DNA from: a virus | Taxonomy: Duplodnaviria; Heunggongvirae; Uroviricota; Caudoviricetes | DNA length: 5,537 bases | Strand: one strand, 5' to 3' | IMG/VR virus record: IMGVR_UViG_2602041586_000008 | Location: 1 to 5,537 of that record | Part shown: positions 1-5,537 of the stretch, piece after piece | Numbering within the stretch: position 1 is the first letter of the stretch | Layout: every line of letters begins with the position of its first letter | The notes under the pieces: generated by a model | What the model was told of the DNA's origin: nothing | Databases searched by the model: none | The model's input: the letters and a program-made list of their open reading frames with translations, nothing else | Position numbers and translations under genes: made by a program

Positions 1-70
1 TGTGCCAACAGCGGACATTATAGATGGTATATGTAGAAAGTGAACATGCGTAGATTGTATGATTTAGCCG

Positions 71-880
71 TCACTTAATTATTGGATAACTCACACAAGT
101 ATGACCGTTGCTTATCGCATACATTTGGTTTCCCTTAAGATTTACAAATGGAAATGTCGTATACTCATAATTTATAGAGGTCATATTAAATGTAAGGAAT
201 TTATCTTCAAGTTCTAATTTTGTAGAGTGGGCAGGGTATGTTCCTTCATTTTTCATTGTGATAATAAAACCGATAGGAAAAAAATGTAAAGCACAAATAA
301 ATGCCACATGTCCTTCGTTCATAAATGCTACACTTTGAGCGGATATGTGCATTCTGTGTGGGTAAAACCAGTAGTAAATATCATGAGTTTCCTCAAAACT
401 TGAATTTTTACCCAAAACATAATCCTTTAAAGGTGTATAGAAGGGGCTATCTACGGGTTCTTTTTTACAATCTTCAACTGAAGTTGCTGATAGCACGTGC
501 CCAATCATAGCCTTAGTGAAAGATATGCTATCAAAAGGTATTCTAATGAATGGATATACATTCATACCATTCATATATCGACTTAACTGTTCTTTAAAGG
601 ACTTTGTTACATTTTCAATTGCAACATCGAGCCCACCTAATACCTTATTGTTACAGTGGCTGCAAATGGTTCTGAAATAAGAGCCATTTTTAGCATTTAA
701 TGGTTTAACTGGTTCCTGAATACCAAAAAATTCGCTAACTGTTTTCTGCAAAACAGGGCCTAAGGTTATGGCGCACTTTGGAGGAACATGATCTTTTGTG
801 AGCAAGCCATATTTCCCACAAATATTGCAATAACCTTCAGTAATGCCATTGTGCTTCCATCGTTCACTAATTTTCGTCAT
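71..880 (-). CDS. HNH/HNN-type nuclease-domain protein, 269 aa; N-terminal zinc-finger nuclease motif, C-terminal ~180 aa uncharacterised
   Basis: Complete ORF with ATG at 880..878 and a GAGGGA Shine-Dalgarno 6 nt upstream on the minus strand. The N-terminus carries CNICG...DHVPP...N...CSHCNNK, i.e. CxxC / DH / N / CxHCN, which fits the HNH (HNN-variant) beta-beta-alpha-metal fold. The C-terminal aromatic-rich region is not recognised. GC is visibly lower than in the phage core genes. Confidence 0.7.
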   Translation of the reverse strand: MTKISERWKHNGITEGYCNICGKYGLLTKDHVPPKCAITLGPVLQKTVSEFFGIQEPVKPLNAKNGSYFRTICSHCNNKVLGGLDVAIENVTKSFKEQLSRYMNGMNVYPFIRIPFDSISFTKAMIGHVLSATSVEDCKKEPVDSPFYTPLKDYVLGKNSSFEETHDIYYWFYPHRMHISAQSVAFMNEGHVAFICALHFFPIGFIITMKNEGTYPAHSTKLELEDKFLTFNMTSINYEYTTFPFVNLKGNQMYAISNGHTCVSYPIIK

Positions 881-1440
881 TTTTATTCCCTCAGTAGCAT
901 AAGCTATCTATACGTTTTTTAATCCTATCAAAGATACAACTTAACGTCAGGAAAATGATAGTGTTTATCTAAGTAATACAATTAACTTCAACGCGTGACA
1001 GTCTGCTTTTCGCTCAAAGCGGACTAGAAGGTTAGCTTGCGTCGGACTTGGCGTATTTAAAGAAGTGCTGGTGGTGACTGGTTGTTGTGTTCCATTTCTA
1101 CAGAATAAAATCACAGAAACTATACCCAATAGTTGTATTGAATCACTGACGAGACAGCTTCATATTTATCAGGACTGGTGTGCGTCTAATACAGGGGGTT
1201 GTCGTGCTGGTTCTCAAATGTGCGCTGGCTATTGCGGCTGTAATGGCAATTTATTGTCTTGCTGTTGTTCTTATGGAGCGGCTTTCTGATTGATTACATA
1301 CTGGCTAGAAAAAAGGTGTTACCTTGGTTTATCTTTGTCCGGCAAGGTGCGCTCATTAATCTTAAGTAAATTTATTGCTCAAGTATTCAGATTACTTCTT
1401 ATGGTTGAAGTCTCCTGTCAATGTAGAACCAATATATTTA

Positions 1441-1478
1441 CAAAAATGAGACCCGTCGGGGATAGCCCTGCCGGGTCT
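1441..1478 (-). terminator. Candidate intrinsic terminator for the YeaR-like gene
   Basis: 7-bp stem AGACCCG (1449-1455) / CGGGTCT (1472-1478) with a 16-nt loop. On the minus strand it is followed directly by ATTTTTG (plus 1441-1447), about 30 nt past the stop at 1508. The loop is large, so stability is uncertain. Confidence 0.45.
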
Positions 1479-1507
1479 GACTGTTAAAGCATTTTTAATA
1501 TGATCAT

Positions 1508-1846
1508 CTATTTTTTGGTGCTATAGACTTTTTCGCCCGAGAAGTCTGGAGCGACCCAAAAGTTAATATTAAACTGAGCATCATCGCTTAGTTCAACACG
1601 GTGCCAGTATTGTGGTGGGCTTGTTGCAAAAGCGCCAGCATTAATGACTACTTTTATCTCCGGTTCAGTAGCATTCTCATCAGTAAAACCATAATATGTT
1701 ACAGTGCCTTCCATTACGCACAACTGCCCAAAAACACCTGCTGCTGTATTATGATGTGTTAATAACGCTGAAGGTACGTTCTCTTTTGTGAAGAACGGAG
1801 TTGAGCGTTTGATTACCCAATCTTTAGGAATTCTCTTGTGTGTCAT
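1508..1846 (-). CDS. DUF1971 / YeaR-like small protein, 112 aa (TehB-C-terminal-like fold family)
   Basis: The ORF track gives 1508..1870, but the internal Met (MTHKRIPKD...) at 1846 is preceded by a perfect GAGGAGG Shine-Dalgarno (plus 1853-1859), so the start is placed at 1846. Motifs RSTPFF, VMEGTV.YYGF.DE..EP, AG.FA..PP..WH and FNINFWVAP match my recollection of E. coli YeaR (DUF1971). Confidence 0.8.
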   Translation of the reverse strand: MTHKRIPKDWVIKRSTPFFTKENVPSALLTHHNTAAGVFGQLCVMEGTVTYYGFTDENATEPEIKVVINAGAFATSPPQYWHRVELSDDAQFNINFWVAPDFSGEKVYSTKK

Positions 1847-1861
1847 AACCACCTCCTCAAA

Positions 1862-1884
1862 AACATGCATTATAAATGCGTGTT
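1862..1884. promoter_or_regulatory. NsrR-box-like 11-1-11 inverted repeat (candidate operator) over the -10 of the YeaR-like gene
   Basis: Plus strand reads AACATGCATTA-T-AAATGCGTGTT. Both halves approximate the NsrR half-site AAnATGCATTT as I remember it, 10/11 and 9/11. It lies 3-5 nt upstream of the Shine-Dalgarno and contains the -10 hexamer. Confidence 0.4.
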
Positions 1885-1901
1885 TTTGAGGGTTATGTCA
1901 A
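1869..1901 (-). promoter_or_regulatory. Sigma70-like promoter elements for the YeaR-like gene with an atypical 21-bp spacer
   Basis: On the minus strand there is a perfect TTGACA (plus 1896-1901) and a perfect TATAAT (plus 1869-1874), separated by 21 bp. That is longer than the usual 16-18 bp. The -10 is well placed relative to the SD and ATG (predicted start site near 1862). Confidence 0.35.
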
Positions 1902-2163
1902 GCTGTTATGAAACACATAATTGATATGTTGATTAGAGGAGAAGATATAATAAATATGGTTGTTTTTCGTATAACTATTTGTTTTACTTTTAGTTTATGC
2001 ATTCTGTGTGTTAGGAATAAGTTATTAAAGTTTAATCAAAAAATCTCGATGTAGTCCACATAGATTATTGTTACTGAACCTTATTGTGTGTATTAGTTGT
2101 GTTCTGAAATTTCAGCTTAATTATTTATGATGTATTTTTTAACGATAAATATTTTCCCAGGAT

Positions 2164-2214
2164 GCCTTTACTGTGTATATAAATAAATTATATACACATA
2201 AATAATGTAAAGGC
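2164..2214. repeat. Nested inverted repeat in an AT-rich intergenic region
   Basis: Inner perfect IR TGTGTATATAA (2172-2182) / TTATATACACA (2188-2198) with a 5-bp spacer. It is flanked by outer arms GCCTTTA (2164-2170) / TAAAGGC (2208-2214). Confidence 0.5.
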
Positions 2215-2573
2215 GTCCTTTTAGATATATCTTATCAAATGTTAATGACTTGAGTGGGAAATATGATTCCAGCAACTTATCATGTGGCTACTTTATAAAA
2301 ATAATGCCCATATAAAACAACAAGCGAAAAGGATTACGGATAAAAAAGGAGCGAGATGTGCGAACTTGTTATTTTCCATGTTTAACCACCTTAAATAATT
2401 GATGATGACGGGATGATTGCATCTGTAATGCTTTTATTGAAATGTTATGATAAAAAAGAACTTTTGCATAACATTAAAATGTAATTTATCTAATCGTTTT
2501 TAATAATAAATGTCGTATTTCTATCCTTGTACCAGCTATTTGATATGTAGTGTTTGTTCATGCTATGTGGGGC

Positions 2574-2601
2574 TTTACACCATAGCCAGTTTATTTATAC
2601 T
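2574..2601 (+). promoter_or_regulatory. Candidate sigma70 promoter for the nin-like operon
   Basis: TTTACA (2574-2579), 16-bp spacer, TATACT (2596-2601), about 60 nt upstream of the ATG at 2660. It overlaps an imperfect hairpin (GCTATG(T)GG ... CCATAGC, 2562-2586) followed by T-rich sequence, which could instead be a tR2-like terminator. Confidence 0.3.
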
Positions 2602-2659
2602 TTATTCGTCAGCCTGAACAACTGGCATCTGCTGCGCTGCGCCATCGAGAGATTGAGAA

Positions 2660-3259
2660 ATGGCGCATATACAACTGGTCAAACAAACCTCTTCTGGTTT
2701 ACTTCTCCCGGCGACGCCGGAGAGTTGCGATTTTTTGCATCAAATCAAAATAGGTGAGTGGATACACGCAGACTTTAAGCGTGTGCGTAACTACGCATTC
2801 CACAAGCGTTTTTTCAAACTCCTGCAACTGGGATTCGATTACTGGACTCCGGTCGGTGGGGCGATCACGCCTCGCGAACGAAAACTGGTATCGGGCTTCG
2901 TTGATTACCTGTGCGAATCAGTAGGTCGGGAACACACTCCAGCCCTGAGTGATGCCGCAGAGCAATACCTTAATACCGTTGCGACATGCAGAACCCGGGA
3001 TACGGCATTGCTAAAGTCGTTTGACGCTTTCCGCGAGTGGGTAACCATTCAGGCAGGATTTTACACCGAGTATATTTATCCTGATGGTAGTCGTGGGCGC
3101 AGGGCAAAATCTATCGCATTTGCGAACATGGACGAAACCGAGTTTCAGCAGGTTTATAAATCTGTACTGAATGTGCTGTGGAACTGGATCCTGTTCCGTA
3201 AATTTTCCTCTCCGGAGGAAGTCGAAAATGTGGCCGCACAGTTACTGGAGTTTGCGTAA
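2660..3259 (+). CDS. Lambdoid nin-region protein, 199 aa (DUF1367-like by memory and synteny)
   Basis: Complete ORF at about 50% GC. Its stop overlaps the next gene's start (TAATG at 3257-3261). Position is immediately upstream of a YbcO-like gene and a Q-like gene, as in many enterobacterial prophage nin regions. The family name is a recollection, not a search result. Confidence 0.8.
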   Translation: MAHIQLVKQTSSGLLLPATPESCDFLHQIKIGEWIHADFKRVRNYAFHKRFFKLLQLGFDYWTPVGGAITPRERKLVSGFVDYLCESVGREHTPALSDAAEQYLNTVATCRTRDTALLKSFDAFREWVTIQAGFYTEYIYPDGSRGRRAKSIAFANMDETEFQQVYKSVLNVLWNWILFRKFSSPEEVENVAAQLLEFA

Positions 3260-3549
3260 TGGTGGATTTACGTAAAGCGGCGCGGGGGCAGATGTGCACC
3301 GTCAGAATTCCTGGCTACTGCAATCACAATCCCGAAACATCTGTGCTGGCGCATTACAGGCTGTCGGGGACGTGCGGAACAGCGACAAAACCACACGATA
3401 TGCAGGCAGCGATTGCCTGTAGCTCATGCCACGATTTAATCGACGGGCGGGTAAAAACCAGCGATTACACCAAAGAAGAATTACGCCTGATGCATGCAGA
3501 AGGTGTTTTTCGCACACAAGAAATCTGGAGAAAGGAAGGTTATTTATGA
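3259..3549 (+). CDS. ybcO: YbcO-like (DUF1364) Cys-rich, likely zinc-binding phage protein, 96 aa; putative nuclease
   Basis: 96 aa, the same length as DLP12 YbcO. It has the MxDLRKAARG...C.VRIPG.CNxNPETSVLAH.R..G.CGT.TKP......IAC..CHD pattern with 5 Cys and His that I recall for YbcO. Translationally coupled on both sides (TAATG upstream, ATGA downstream). Confidence 0.75.
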   Translation: MVDLRKAARGQMCTVRIPGYCNHNPETSVLAHYRLSGTCGTATKPHDMQAAIACSSCHDLIDGRVKTSDYTKEELRLMHAEGVFRTQEIWRKEGYL

Positions 3550-4088
3550 TTTACCCAACAAATACAGGCAAAAGCGGGGAACACCTTCGTCTCACCACGC
3601 TGGAAAGTGTCTGGATTCAGGGAAAACTGCGCATGTGGGGGCGCTGGTCGTATATTGGCGGCGGTAAGACGGGAAATATGTTTAACCAGTTGCTGGCATC
3701 CAAAAAATTGACGAAAACAGCCGTCAATGAAGCCCTGCGCAGGATGAAAAAAGCGGGAATAGAGAAACCTGAGCTGGAAGCGTTTTTGCGAGAGATGATC
3801 AATGGCAAGCTAAAGACCTGGCTGGCGCATTGTACTGATGCAGAGGCGTTATGTATTGATAGAGTCATAAGTGAGGTGCTGGCAGAGCATCCTGGATTGA
3901 TTAGTGTCCTCCGGCAACGGTATGAAGGACGGGGGATGACTAAGCGCAAAATGGCTGAATTGCTAAATGATGCACATCCTGAGTGGTGTTTTAGCACATG
4001 CGAAAAGCGAATTGCTAATTGGTTGGCTGTTGCTGAGTATGCCCTATATATTCCCATGCGAGAATCATTTGCTCAAAAAATAGCTTGA
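3546..4088 (+). CDS. Putative late-gene antiterminator, Q-like, 180 aa
   Basis: Start placed at the internal ATG 3546, which has an AAGGAAGG Shine-Dalgarno 5 nt upstream and overlaps the YbcO-like stop as ATGA. The longer ORF from 3426 would overlap the YbcO-like gene by 124 nt with an Arg-rich N-terminus. It is the last nin-side gene before a hairpin/terminator region and the lysis gene. It has four Cys (C-x6-C ... C-x3-C). The function is assigned by synteny; the sequence family is not confirmed. Confidence 0.6.
   Translation: MIYPTNTGKSGEHLRLTTLESVWIQGKLRMWGRWSYIGGGKTGNMFNQLLASKKLTKTAVNEALRRMKKAGIEKPELEAFLREMINGKLKTWLAHCTDAEALCIDRVISEVLAEHPGLISVLRQRYEGRGMTKRKMAELLNDAHPEWCFSTCEKRIANWLAVAEYALYIPMRESFAQKIA
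4023..4052 (+). promoter_or_regulatory. Candidate late promoter (PR'-like) inside the 3' end of the Q-like gene
   Basis: TTGGCT (4023-4028), 16-18 bp spacer, TATATA/TATATT (4045-4052). An alternative is TTGATT (4085-4090), 17 bp, TGcTTCAAT (4105-4113). Neither is compelling. Confidence 0.2.
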
Positions 4089-4117
4089 TTTTTTACGCGT
4101 AAACTGCTTCAATTCCG

Positions 4118-4134
4118 GCTTTGCTTCGCAAAGC
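4118..4134. repeat. Perfect inverted repeat GCTTTGC-TTC-GCAAAGC
   Basis: 7-bp arms with a 3-nt loop, 30 bp after the Q-like stop. No T-run follows, so it is not a terminator by itself. It could be a protein-binding site or an RNA hairpin in the late leader. Confidence 0.5.
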
Positions 4135-4172
4135 TGTATCGCGAGGCGAACCAAGCGCATGAACTTTACCAG

Positions 4173-4200
4173 AACCCGCCATTGAGCGGGTTTTGTTGTT
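4173..4200 (+). terminator. tR'-like intrinsic terminator downstream of the Q-like gene
   Basis: Stem AACCCGC (4173-4179) / GCGGGTT (4186-4192), 6-nt loop, followed by TTTGTTGTTT. Confidence 0.55.
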
Positions 4201-4276
4201 TCTGGTACTGGCGAACCTGATGTTTCATTTCTGGAACGAGATTCCTGGCGGAATACCTAGAATCGAGACATTCTGG
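4200..4276 (+). repeat. Direct repeats of TTCTGG (x3) plus one TTCCTGG in the leader of the membrane-protein gene
   Basis: TTCTGG at 4200-4205, 4229-4234 and 4271-4276, and TTCCTGG at 4242-4248, all between the tR'-like terminator and the ATG at 4311. Confidence 0.35.
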
Positions 4277-4310
4277 TAAAATTGTTTTCAGTACAGGATG
4301 TGGAGGTGAG

Positions 4311-4880
4311 ATGAGAGAACTACCTAAAGATTATTTTTTAGGAGTAGATGATGAGCTCGTCGATTATCTTGAAAAACAAGGGGAAGAGACGATACGAGAG
4401 ATTCATCTTTCTAACAAAACCAATGTTGAGAATGGATACAAACTTCTGAACATTCAGATTGTTGGAATTGGTTCATCTTTTTTATTGCTGACACAGAAAA
4501 CTAATTTCGATTTTCTCACCGCCGGAATTACCACATTTACATTACTATGGACATGGTGCGCCATTTACTTGATATGTACTGGTTTATCTGTGAAGGTTAG
4601 GGGCCTGATCAATGCCCCTCCTGATCATCTATATCATGAAAAATATAAGGATATGGAGCCCTCGAGCTTTAAAATATTCGCTGATGCAGGATATTTAGGA
4701 CCTGATAAGTTATTGCCGCTTATACGAAGGTATCGCCTTGTTGACTTGAGTGATACAGCAAGAGAGTTACTGTTGGAAAATGAGAAAATCCGCACGAGTC
4801 TCGATAAAGCAAGGATGTATACCATCCTTGCTCCGGTAGCGGCGATGTTTATCTCGGCTGTTTTTTTATATGTTCAATGA
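4311..4880 (+). CDS. Low-GC predicted membrane protein, 189 aa, about 3 TM helices; accessory gene between Q and holin
   Basis: Complete ORF with GGAGG just upstream, though the spacer is short. Hydrophobic segments sit near aa 45-62 and 68-92 and at the C-terminus (MYTILAPVAAMFISAVFLYVQ), with soluble N-terminal and central regions. It is visibly more AT-rich than the flanking Q-like and holin genes. No family recognised. Confidence 0.7.
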   Translation: MRELPKDYFLGVDDELVDYLEKQGEETIREIHLSNKTNVENGYKLLNIQIVGIGSSFLLLTQKTNFDFLTAGITTFTLLWTWCAIYLICTGLSVKVRGLINAPPDHLYHEKYKDMEPSSFKIFADAGYLGPDKLLPLIRRYRLVDLSDTARELLLENEKIRTSLDKARMYTILAPVAAMFISAVFLYVQ

Positions 4881-5010
4881 CTGAGTCGGCAGAATCTCCA
4901 ACAAAAACACGACGTGTAGCAAAGTCTGTAGTACTTTGTGTTGGAGTTGGTTTTGGTGCCACGGGTTGCTGAGGTTTATTTTCATCTTGTGGCTTGTTTT
5001 TTTCAGACAT
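4849..5010 (-). CDS. Small hydrophilic Pro/Lys/Gln-rich protein, 53 aa (hypothetical)
   Basis: Internal ATG at 5010 of the 130-aa minus ORF, with a strong AAGAGGA Shine-Dalgarno 5 nt upstream. Sequence MSEKNKPQDENKPQQPVAPKPTPTQSTTDFATRRVFVGDSADSVIEHIKKQPR. Its 3' end overlaps the membrane-protein gene by 32 bp in convergent orientation. It could equally be non-coding antisense sequence. Confidence 0.4.
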   Translation of the reverse strand: MSEKNKPQDENKPQQPVAPKPTPTQSTTDFATRRVFVGDSADSVIEHIKKQPR

Positions 5011-5103
5011 AAAAATCCTCTTTGTTTGAATTGTTACTTTTGGCGATTTAACGATATCAAACACGAGTATATACCGCCAGAAGCTTAATCTGGCACTCCA
5101 TCT

Positions 5104-5130
5104 GACCCCGGCATGTCCCGGGGCTTTTTC
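5104..5130 (+). terminator. Intrinsic terminator upstream of the holin gene
   Basis: GC-only stem CCCCGG (5106-5111) / CCGGGG (5118-5123) with loop CATGTC, followed by CTTTTTC. Plus-strand only; there is no T-run on the other side. Confidence 0.6.
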
Positions 5131-5227
5131 GTTGTTAGGCTCCGGAAACATCCTCGACTTCTTGTTAGCAAGCCTGAGAGCCTGAATCTTACACTTAGCA
5201 CCATCCGAACTCTCGGAGGTGAGGCTT

Positions 5228-5537
5228 ATGAAAATGCACAATGCCCCTCATTCCTGGCCTGACTTACTGGAACTCTTACAAAGTTGGTGGCGTGGAGATA
5301 CGCCGCTGGGTGCAGTGGTTATGTCAATTATTATGGCTGGTTTGCGCATTGCCTATTTTGGCGGTGGCGGCGGCTGGAAACGAAAAACGCTTGAGATTCT
5401 GCTTTGTGGTGCTCTGACGCTGACCTTTGCATCCGCGCTTGAGTATGTCGGATGGCCTAAATCACTTTCTGTTGCCATTGGTGGTGGGGTGGGGCTGAAG
5501 TGGTTTACTGAATTTGGCCACCTGAACAGAGGTGATA
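5228..5537 (+). CDS. Lambda-S-like class I holin with MKM dual start (antiholin/holin), 3' truncated by the window edge
   Basis: GGAGGT Shine-Dalgarno at 5215-5220 and ATG at 5228. Translation MKMHNAPHSWPDLLELL...GGGGGWKRKTLEILLCGALTLTFASALEYVGW... has the Met-Lys-Met dual-start signature and hydrophobic layout of lambda S. The reading frame runs open to the window end (103 codons). Confidence 0.8.
   Translation, partial: MKMHNAPHSWPDLLELLQSWWRGDTPLGAVVMSIIMAGLRIAYFGGGGGWKRKTLEILLCGALTLTFASALEYVGWPKSLSVAIGGGVGLKWFTEFGHLNRGD

Follow-up and report, generated by a model that had tools for sequence, protein, structure and literature searches.

We analyzed a stretch of viral DNA of 5,537 nucleotides (here called the window; positions 1 to 5,537 of the IMG/VR record IMGVR_UViG_2602041586_000008, Caudoviricetes) in which a 112-amino-acid (aa) protein with a DUF1971 domain is encoded on the minus strand, opposite in orientation to both flanking blocks of phage genes. 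The gene and its regulatory region probably form a self-contained moron within a Rac-type lambdoid prophage, with a promoter predicted from its sequence to be repressed by the host regulator NsrR and released by nitric oxide (NO). A preliminary description of the same DNA had proposed a nitrosative-stress-inducible accessory gene carried by a prophage, and this reading is supported by the sequence comparisons presented below, most strongly by the promoters of orthologs from several genera, in which an NsrR box occupies the same position. The features of the unit are as follows (positions are those of the window).

1442..1478, minus strand: probable intrinsic terminator (stem AGACCCG/CGGGUCU, inner stem, then UUUUU)
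1508..1846 (stop codon included), minus strand: DUF1971 coding sequence (CDS) of the STM1808, or short "TehB-like," subfamily (112 aa, 339 nt)
1852..1858, minus strand: Shine-Dalgarno (SD) sequence GAGGAGG, read from the sequence, with 5 nt from GGAGG to the ATG
1855..1891, both strands: full palindrome of 37 bp (17-nt arms, one mismatch, 3-nt center)
1862..1884, both strands: predicted NsrR operator, an 11-1-11 inverted repeat (minus strand, AACACGCATTT-A-TAATGCATGTT), based on the NsrR matrix and on conservation in orthologs
1869..1874, minus strand: perfect TATAAT hexamer, candidate -10 within the operator (CATAAT in one allele)
1873..1878, minus strand: CATTTA, homologous to the -10 of the orthologs (box positions 7 to 12); a poor hexamer (2/6 matches)
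1896..1901, minus strand: consensus -35 hexamer TTGACA, which ends 11 nt upstream of the NsrR box, like that of the orthologs

The DUF1971 gene and its subfamily

The 112-aa protein matched the Pfam family DUF1971 (PF09313) over the whole domain (profile positions 1 to 80 of 80) with a score of 92 bits against a gathering cut-off of 23.1 (E = 2.3e-26), as the preliminary description had anticipated. It also matched the solved DUF1971 structures 3DL3 and 3BB6. The start codon is the ATG at 1846 to 1844, in agreement with RefSeq entry WP_000149055.1 (named "DUF1971 domain-containing protein" or "TehB family protein") and with all of the orthologs. A longer open reading frame (ORF) of 120 aa from the ATG at 1870 starts within the palindrome and has no backing from orthologs, and it was rejected as the CDS.

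Sequence comparison indicates that the gene is an STM1808-type paralog of YeaR and not a YeaR-type gene. Its product was much closer to that of a Salmonella enterica gene encoded directly after dsbB (P0019; 79% identity, full length, no gaps) than to K-12 YeaR (41% identity). The gene order in S. enterica is fadR-nhaB-dsbB-X-...-ycgN-ycgM-ycgL-minC, with the same synteny in subsp. arizonae. Given that dsbB is STM1807 (PMC4143323), the adjoining ortholog X is, by position, STM1808. In PMC7527575, with reference to Karlinsey et al. 2012, STM1808 is placed in the NsrR regulon and credited with a role in virulence. Single-copy chromosomal genes whose products share 75 to 82% identity with the prophage protein are present in Kluyvera, Leclercia, Citrobacter, Klebsiella, Raoultella, Salmonella, Vibrio, Aliivibrio, Photobacterium, and Shewanella. 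No chromosomal STM1808 ortholog was detectable in E. coli. A "tellurite resistance protein B" of Aliivibrio fischeri (PDB 3DL3) has the same length and about 77% identity (E = 3.5e-59).

The likeness to YeaR that had been proposed does not extend to orthology. We rejected orthology with YeaR on the basis of the low identity, the absence of yoaG (no such partner lies downstream; a terminator-like hairpin stands after the gene instead), and the lack of any DNA similarity to the chromosomal yeaR region; the NarL 7-2-7 site of yeaR is also missing (see below). An identity as a TehB methyltransferase was rejected as well. The NCBIfam equivalog PRK12335 scored 49 bits against a cut-off of 303 and matched over its N-terminal 106 positions only, and the "TehB family" label in RefSeq is therefore misleading, being a carry-over at the level of the domain. 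Full-length TehB, a methyltransferase dependent on S-adenosylmethionine with an N-terminal DUF1971 domain (PDB 3M70), aligns with the prophage protein in that domain (E = 5e-11), but the prophage protein has no methyltransferase domain. The encoded product is a small cupin-like DUF1971 protein, the counterpart of Salmonella STM1808. PADLOC returned no match for the gene or its neighbors, and a role in a defense system was rejected on this basis.

Differences among the prophage alleles were mostly synonymous (ratios of nonsynonymous to synonymous substitution rates [dN/dS] of 0.04 and 0.20, from few substitutions and small counts), which indicates from the sequences that the prophage copies are under purifying selection. 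Synonymous sites were saturated in comparisons with the Kluyvera and Salmonella genes, which points either to a donor from outside the genera sampled or to an old transfer.

The predicted NsrR operator and its conservation

We scored the window with a palindromic NsrR weight matrix. Its input was Table 4 of a chromatin immunoprecipitation sequencing (ChIP-seq) study of strain CFT073 (PMC5320621), which provided 26 distinct sites of the 11-1-11 type. The best match in the window (20.7 bits; runner-up, 12.0 bits) was the operator at 1862 to 1884, which is exactly the position of the 23-mer that the preliminary description had likened to the NsrR consensus (AACATGCATTATAAATGCGTGTT, i.e., AACATGCATTA-T-AAATGCGTGTT) and the core of the palindrome. 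When the known NsrR sites were scored leave-one-out (ytfE, 30.6 bits; hcp, 25.1; yeaR, 22.5; ygbA, 21.0; hmp, 17.9), the window site ranked about 7th of 26, level with ygbA and gadX. The exact tail probability of its score was 5e-8 when a uniform background was assumed and 2e-6 with the background set to 30% G+C, corresponding to at most 0.025 sites expected per window, and none of 300 composition-preserving shuffles attained it (best shuffle, 20.4 bits). The element is thus a 23-bp inverted repeat that scores within the range of the validated sites, and the proposed resemblance to an NsrR box is borne out. A second NsrR-like match, at 1942 to 1964 (12.0 bits), was dismissed as being at chance level in AT-rich DNA (1 to 5 expected per window).

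The full palindrome at 1855 to 1891 adds seven pairs per side to the box, and its left arm (in plus-strand coordinates) overlaps the SD sequence. None of 300 block shuffles of the window contained a repeat with 17-nt arms at 16/17 matches (maximum, 15). The 23-bp site had been described as centered on a perfect TATAAT; both the site and the hexamer are present, and the hexamer is offset by about 1.5 nt from the dyad center at 1873.

Conservation of the box was assessed by seeking the best matrix match in the 200 bp upstream of each ortholog. At all but one of the enterobacterial loci, this match scored 20.7 to 30.4 bits and was centered 27 to 39 bp before the start codon; the exception was a Leclercia locus (L010), the box of which has lost 1 bp, bringing its score down to 12.2 bits. 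In total, 59 loci from 16 genera, counting E. coli, had a box that scored 17 bits or more and was centered 27 to 55 bp before the ATG, and a box was found at two Photobacterium loci (28.5 and 18.3 bits). Most of the loci in Vibrio, Aliivibrio, and Shewanella had no NsrR box in the upstream 200 bp, and the NsrR link, as judged from these sequences, is thus not universal in the STM1808 subfamily. The enterobacterial orthologs have a -35-like hexamer (TTTACA, TTGACG, TTGCCT, or TTGTTT) 11 to 12 nt before the box and a -10 (TATTTT, TATATT, or CATATT) at box positions 7 to 12, with a spacer of 17 to 18 bp. With one representative per lineage, the column information was 1.62 bits for the box, 0.94 for the -35, and 0.44 to 0.53 for the other flanks. 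Upstream of these orthologous genes, the box therefore stands out in the alignment as a clear phylogenetic footprint, in which the positions of the box and the -35 are fixed while the flanks have diverged.

This conservation bears on the question of whether the palindrome might serve another regulator (a nucleoid protein on AT-rich DNA, a different member of the Rrf2 family, or a repressor of the phage) or have arisen by chance. Both the site and NsrR-like matrices are AT-rich, and one shuffle came close to the score of the site, which would favor such an explanation. The box is nevertheless conserved in nonphage chromosomal contexts in 15 other genera, mostly at 24 to 30 bits, which excludes chance and a Rac-specific repressor, and the Salmonella ortholog is cited as a member of the NsrR regulon. 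We consider an unrelated regulator or a fortuitous palindrome very improbable.

In a comparative study of 2005, Rodionov et al. included tehB-like genes among the predicted NsrR targets of enterobacteria and Photobacterium, with no gene identifiers in the text (PMC1274295), and Gilberthorpe et al. in 2007 found no NsrR effect on Salmonella tehA and tehB (1.1-fold; PMC2884951). Our comparative result agrees with the 2005 prediction, although that text may concern tehAB instead of this subfamily. Conversely, short DUF1971 genes are often labeled TehB, and the "tehB homolog" of 2005 may mean STM1808 and not tehAB.

Four operator alleles were found in E. coli and its phages (17.7 to 26.6 bits). 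Their minus-strand sequences are as follows.

Window allele: AACACGCATTT-A-TAATGCATGTT, 20.7 bits
AR_0372 and induced phage vB_EcoS-666R9: AAGGTGCATTTATAATGCATGTT, 26.6 bits
VE-V10-F: AGGGTGCATTTATAATGCATGTT, 20.1 bits
AMSCJX02: AAGGAGCATTCATAATGCATGTT, 17.7 bits

The substitutions among these alleles concentrate at box positions 2 to 5, which are mostly degenerate in the NsrR consensus; none falls in the right half-site, TTGACA, or the SD core. The seven-pair extension of the palindrome into the SD sequence is present in the window allele only and is lost in the other E. coli alleles.

Much longer perfect palindromes around the NsrR box also occur elsewhere, with eight additional pairs per side in S. 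enterica (L086, about 2944 to 2982) and 10 in Citrobacter (L026 to L051). Loci L030, L071, and L078 were part of the same observation. Klebsiella and most Kluyvera and Leclercia loci have no such extension. The flanks that form these extensions vary from lineage to lineage, and double-sided (compensatory) changes are seen among the Citrobacter species. More speculatively, the palindromes of 37 to 43 bp may reflect either a structural requirement (a cruciform or a DNA-shape preference of NsrR) or neutral templated correction of quasi-palindromes. One clade of chromosomal orthologs (loci L004 to L025; Kluyvera, Leclercia, Silvania, and Buttiauxella) has a conserved TTATTATCAA motif about 10 nt upstream of the -35 that the promoter of the E. 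coli prophage lacks. The motif may be an UP element or may bind a further regulator.

Promoter architecture and predicted regulation

Promoter and gene would have come together from an enterobacterial chromosome, with an ancestral layout consisting of a -35, 11 nt, and a 23-bp operator that holds the -10. In an unstressed lysogen, the [Fe-S] repressor NsrR of the host would occupy the operator and keep RNA polymerase off the -10. Upon exposure to NO, nitrosylation of the cluster would cause NsrR to leave the operator, and an mRNA with a short leader and a strong ribosome-binding site, ending at the hairpin terminator, would then be produced. We infer NsrR binding and NO induction, as well as the exact -10 and transcription start, from this arrangement of sequence elements.

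Both candidate -10 hexamers lie within the box, which follows the consensus -35 after 11 nt, and the binding of NsrR should therefore occlude the -10, whichever of the two is used. TATAAT is located 4 bp beyond the ancestral -10 position and 16 bp from a weak ATAACC. The retention of [T/C]ATAAT in all alleles hints at a working -10; if TATAAT is that element, transcription would start near 1862, leaving a leader of about 16 nt. In most orthologs, GGAGG is conserved at the position of the SD sequence. At the other end of the gene, the putative terminator folds into a 7-bp G+C-rich stem and an inner 3-bp stem at 1449 to 1478, followed by UUUUU at 1446 to 1442, 29 nt past the stop codon. This fold had a z-score of -1.9, and the terminator scan made no call there; we regard the terminator as plausible but imperfect. 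The earlier portrayal of a self-contained unit thus holds for the strong SD sequence, the palindrome, and a plausible terminator, but not for a clean -35/17/-10 promoter, and both promoter and terminator were missed by the scans.

No NarL 7-2-7 site was found within 1850 to 2000 when up to three mismatches were allowed, and no FNR box was found near the promoter; matches to both across the window were at chance level. Coregulation by NarL or FNR as at yeaR was rejected on this basis, and the promoter, unlike that of yeaR, should not require nitrate or anaerobic activation. Inputs of this kind, which are known for yeaR and for further NsrR targets, have no evident counterpart here. A MerR-type promoter with a long spacer, prompted by the 21-bp spacing described below, was also rejected because the dyad is centered on the -10 and not between the hexamers and because the spacers of the orthologs are 17 to 18 bp.

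Several observations weigh against NsrR control of an active promoter. The site list behind the matrix is itself partly matrix predicted, with no ChIP peak for 10 of the 27 table rows. The window box has one deviation per half-site, one of them being a C at left-half position 5 that occurs in no listed site, and among the four E. coli alleles, the scores of which are given above, it was counted as the next to weakest. The spacing between TTGACA and TATAAT is 21 bp; that between TTGACA and CATTTA is 17 bp, but CATTTA is a poor hexamer. A consensus promoter scan called nothing here. Owing to these irregular hexamers, the strength of the promoter and its start site are uncertain. Finally, the surroundings (25 to 30% G+C) could be silenced by H-NS regardless of NsrR.

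Much of this would fit a relic operator in front of a weak or silent promoter, in which the -10 has drifted away (CATTTA now stands at the ancestral position), H-NS perhaps silences the region, and the gene is barely expressed, so that control by NsrR would be irrelevant. In line with such decay, the window box scores below the 24 to 30 bits of most orthologs, the prophage that carries it is degraded (see below), and the spacer upstream of the gene is as poor in G+C as noted above. Decay is, however, at odds with an intact CDS under purifying selection, with the presence of the gene in about 453 complete genomes and in inducible phages, with the retention of [T/C]ATAAT, TTGACA, and a strong SD sequence in all alleles, and with the 26.6-bit box of the commoner divergent allele. 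We therefore judge a relic promoter to be unlikely.

The palindrome could alternatively act at the level of RNA, through a leader hairpin (1841 to 1900, minus strand) that pairs CCUC of the left arm with the SD sequence and buries the AUG, providing translational control or silencing read-through transcripts. An 81-nt leader folded at -25.7 kcal/mol (z = -6.3), its stem taking in both the SD sequence and the start codon, and an outer repeat (1841 to 1850 and 1891 to 1900) adds to the pairing. Any NsrR box, however, folds as a hairpin by construction, such that much of this stability comes from the box itself, and the extra pairs that reach the SD sequence are those lost in the other E. coli alleles. 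With the -35 and -10 at their conserved positions, transcription would start inside the right half-site, giving an mRNA that lacks the left arm, and the minus strand has neither a gene nor a convincing promoter farther upstream. The Rfam search gave just two subthreshold matches to microRNA hairpins (chance hairpins). A regulatory function of the RNA hairpin is thus highly improbable, and we retain NsrR repression at the DNA level as the probable mode of control.

Two known chromosomal systems can be compared with the prophage unit. STM1808 is, like the prophage gene, a single-gene unit, and its box (26.9 bits) shares the same layout in that it holds the -10, has a -35 located 11 to 12 nt upstream, and lies within a longer palindrome. 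It differs in being chromosomal (between dsbB and ycgN) and not phage borne, in the distance from the box center to the ATG (39 bp versus 27 bp in the prophage gene), and in having a -10 (TATATT) in register with its -35, whereas the perfect hexamers of the prophage gene are out of register. The yeaR-yoaG operon of E. coli K-12, which is activated by NarL and repressed by NsrR, shares the DUF1971 domain and an 11-1-11 promoter box (yeaR box, AAATGGTATTTAAAATGCAAATT) and differs in sequence, in its yoaG partner, and in its NarL site, as detailed above. Lin, Bledsoe, and Stewart are said to have placed the center of the yeaR operator at -32 and NarL at -43.5 in 2007; the prophage box, located over the -10, differs from this reported arrangement. 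The Vibrionaceae orthologs, apart from the two Photobacterium loci, mostly differ in lacking an upstream box.

Prophage setting, distribution, and neighboring features

The window was 100% identical to a region of E. coli isolate AB66 (NZ_OZ547461.1), where it belongs to a degraded Rac-type prophage at ttcA. In this prophage, intR is frameshifted, while recET, kilR, sieB, and ydaTUV are retained, and the prophage ends within the holin gene, which is broken by an insertion sequence (IS) element adjoining sitABCD; a similar layout was found in another record. The unit lies between a replication block (DUF1627 and DUF977 genes) and genes for a NinB/Orf-like DUF1367 protein, YbcO, and a DUF1133 Q-like protein, in accordance with the nin-gene neighborhood recognized in the preliminary description. 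The unit and the DUF1367 gene are separated by the following feature.

1902..2659, both strands: AT-rich noncoding spacer (25 to 30% G+C) between the unit and the DUF1367 gene

The spacer of about 760 bp and the gene always accompany the DUF1367 gene in the alleles examined (L083 to L085 and phage L088), and no Rfam family or transfer RNA was found in the spacer. The slot on the other side of the gene varies: in the window it encodes a 269-aa Cys-rich protein, in one strain QueH, and in others both Hok and a KilA-N protein. The gene itself is carried by about 453 of 5,426 complete E. coli genomes (approximately 8%) and by induced phages of the vB_EcoS-666R9 group. Thus, the unit is located inside a prophage next to a slot of variable content and has a promoter and a terminator of its own, as inferred from sequence, which is the arrangement of a moron. 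It resembles the lambdoid morons (bor, lom, and sodC in a general sense) in consisting of a single gene with its own promoter, a probable terminator, and opposite orientation, and also in having a G+C content below that of the nin and Q genes and an adjacent slot whose contents vary among related prophages. In contrast to those morons, it has a promoter that holds a predicted operator for a specific host stress sensor, and this operator would derive from the chromosome of the donor.

In principle, there is nothing new in such an arrangement: control of the subfamily by NsrR is known from Salmonella, and it is well known that morons can have regulated promoters of their own. A prophage-borne E. 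coli copy nonetheless appears to be unreported in the searchable literature, in that searches for DUF1971, STM1808, and NsrR together with the Rac prophage returned no report of one. The NsrR regulon studies of K-12 and CFT073 omit the gene, and neither the site nor the gene is in the CFT073 table. STM1808 is reported to aid the NO resistance of Salmonella. By analogy, we tentatively suggest a form of lysogenic conversion for nitrosative stress, which is possible although hardly the likeliest outcome, whereby lysogens, with no detectable chromosomal STM1808 ortholog in E. coli, would gain an NsrR-controlled, NO-induced protein that measurably improves survival under host-derived NO.

If the predicted regulation is confirmed, a temperate phage would carry a member of a host stress regulon together with its operator, and this cargo would be silent until the lysogen meets NO (e.g., in the inflamed gut, in macrophages, or during nitrate/nitrite respiration). 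The gene would then be an accessory, strain-variable member of the E. coli NsrR regulon, present in the proportion of complete genomes given above, and the labels "TehB family protein," "cytoplasmic protein," and, in PHROG, "unknown function" would be corrected.

Several neighboring features of the window were also noted. The 269-aa protein in the variable slot (71 to 880, minus strand) has CxxC ... CxxC motifs, matches phrog_21495 (unknown function), and has no match in Pfam, NCBIfam, or PADLOC; the labels in its records are "chaperonin," "putative metal-binding domain-containing protein," and hypothetical. The region at 1001 to 1308 looks noncoding and shares 87 to 95% identity with parts of phages Evi, Tritos, and mEp460 that carry no annotation. 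Its sole ORF (1065 to 1289; 74 aa) is Cys-rich and has no family match.

Within the AT-rich spacer, a long imperfect hairpin at 2159 to 2219 (plus strand) consists of an outer stem, AGGATGCCTTTAC/GTAAAGGCGTCCT, and an inner perfect stem of 11 bp, TGTGTATATAA/TTATATACACA, followed by TTTTAG. It could terminate transcription before the NinB-like, YbcO, and Q genes are reached, by analogy with the terminators of the lambda nin region. In a scan of 1300 to 2700, the best match of sigma-70 type (TTTACA-16-TATACT; 10/12) lies at 2574 to 2601 (plus strand), about 60 bp upstream of the DUF1367 gene start at 2660. Farther downstream, a gene at 4311 to 4880 (plus strand) encodes a predicted membrane protein of 189 aa (phrog_11870, unknown function; no match in Pfam, NCBIfam, or PADLOC). 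It occupies a classic late-operon moron position between the Q-like gene and the holin gene and is preceded by a hairpin and T-run at about 4160 to 4200.

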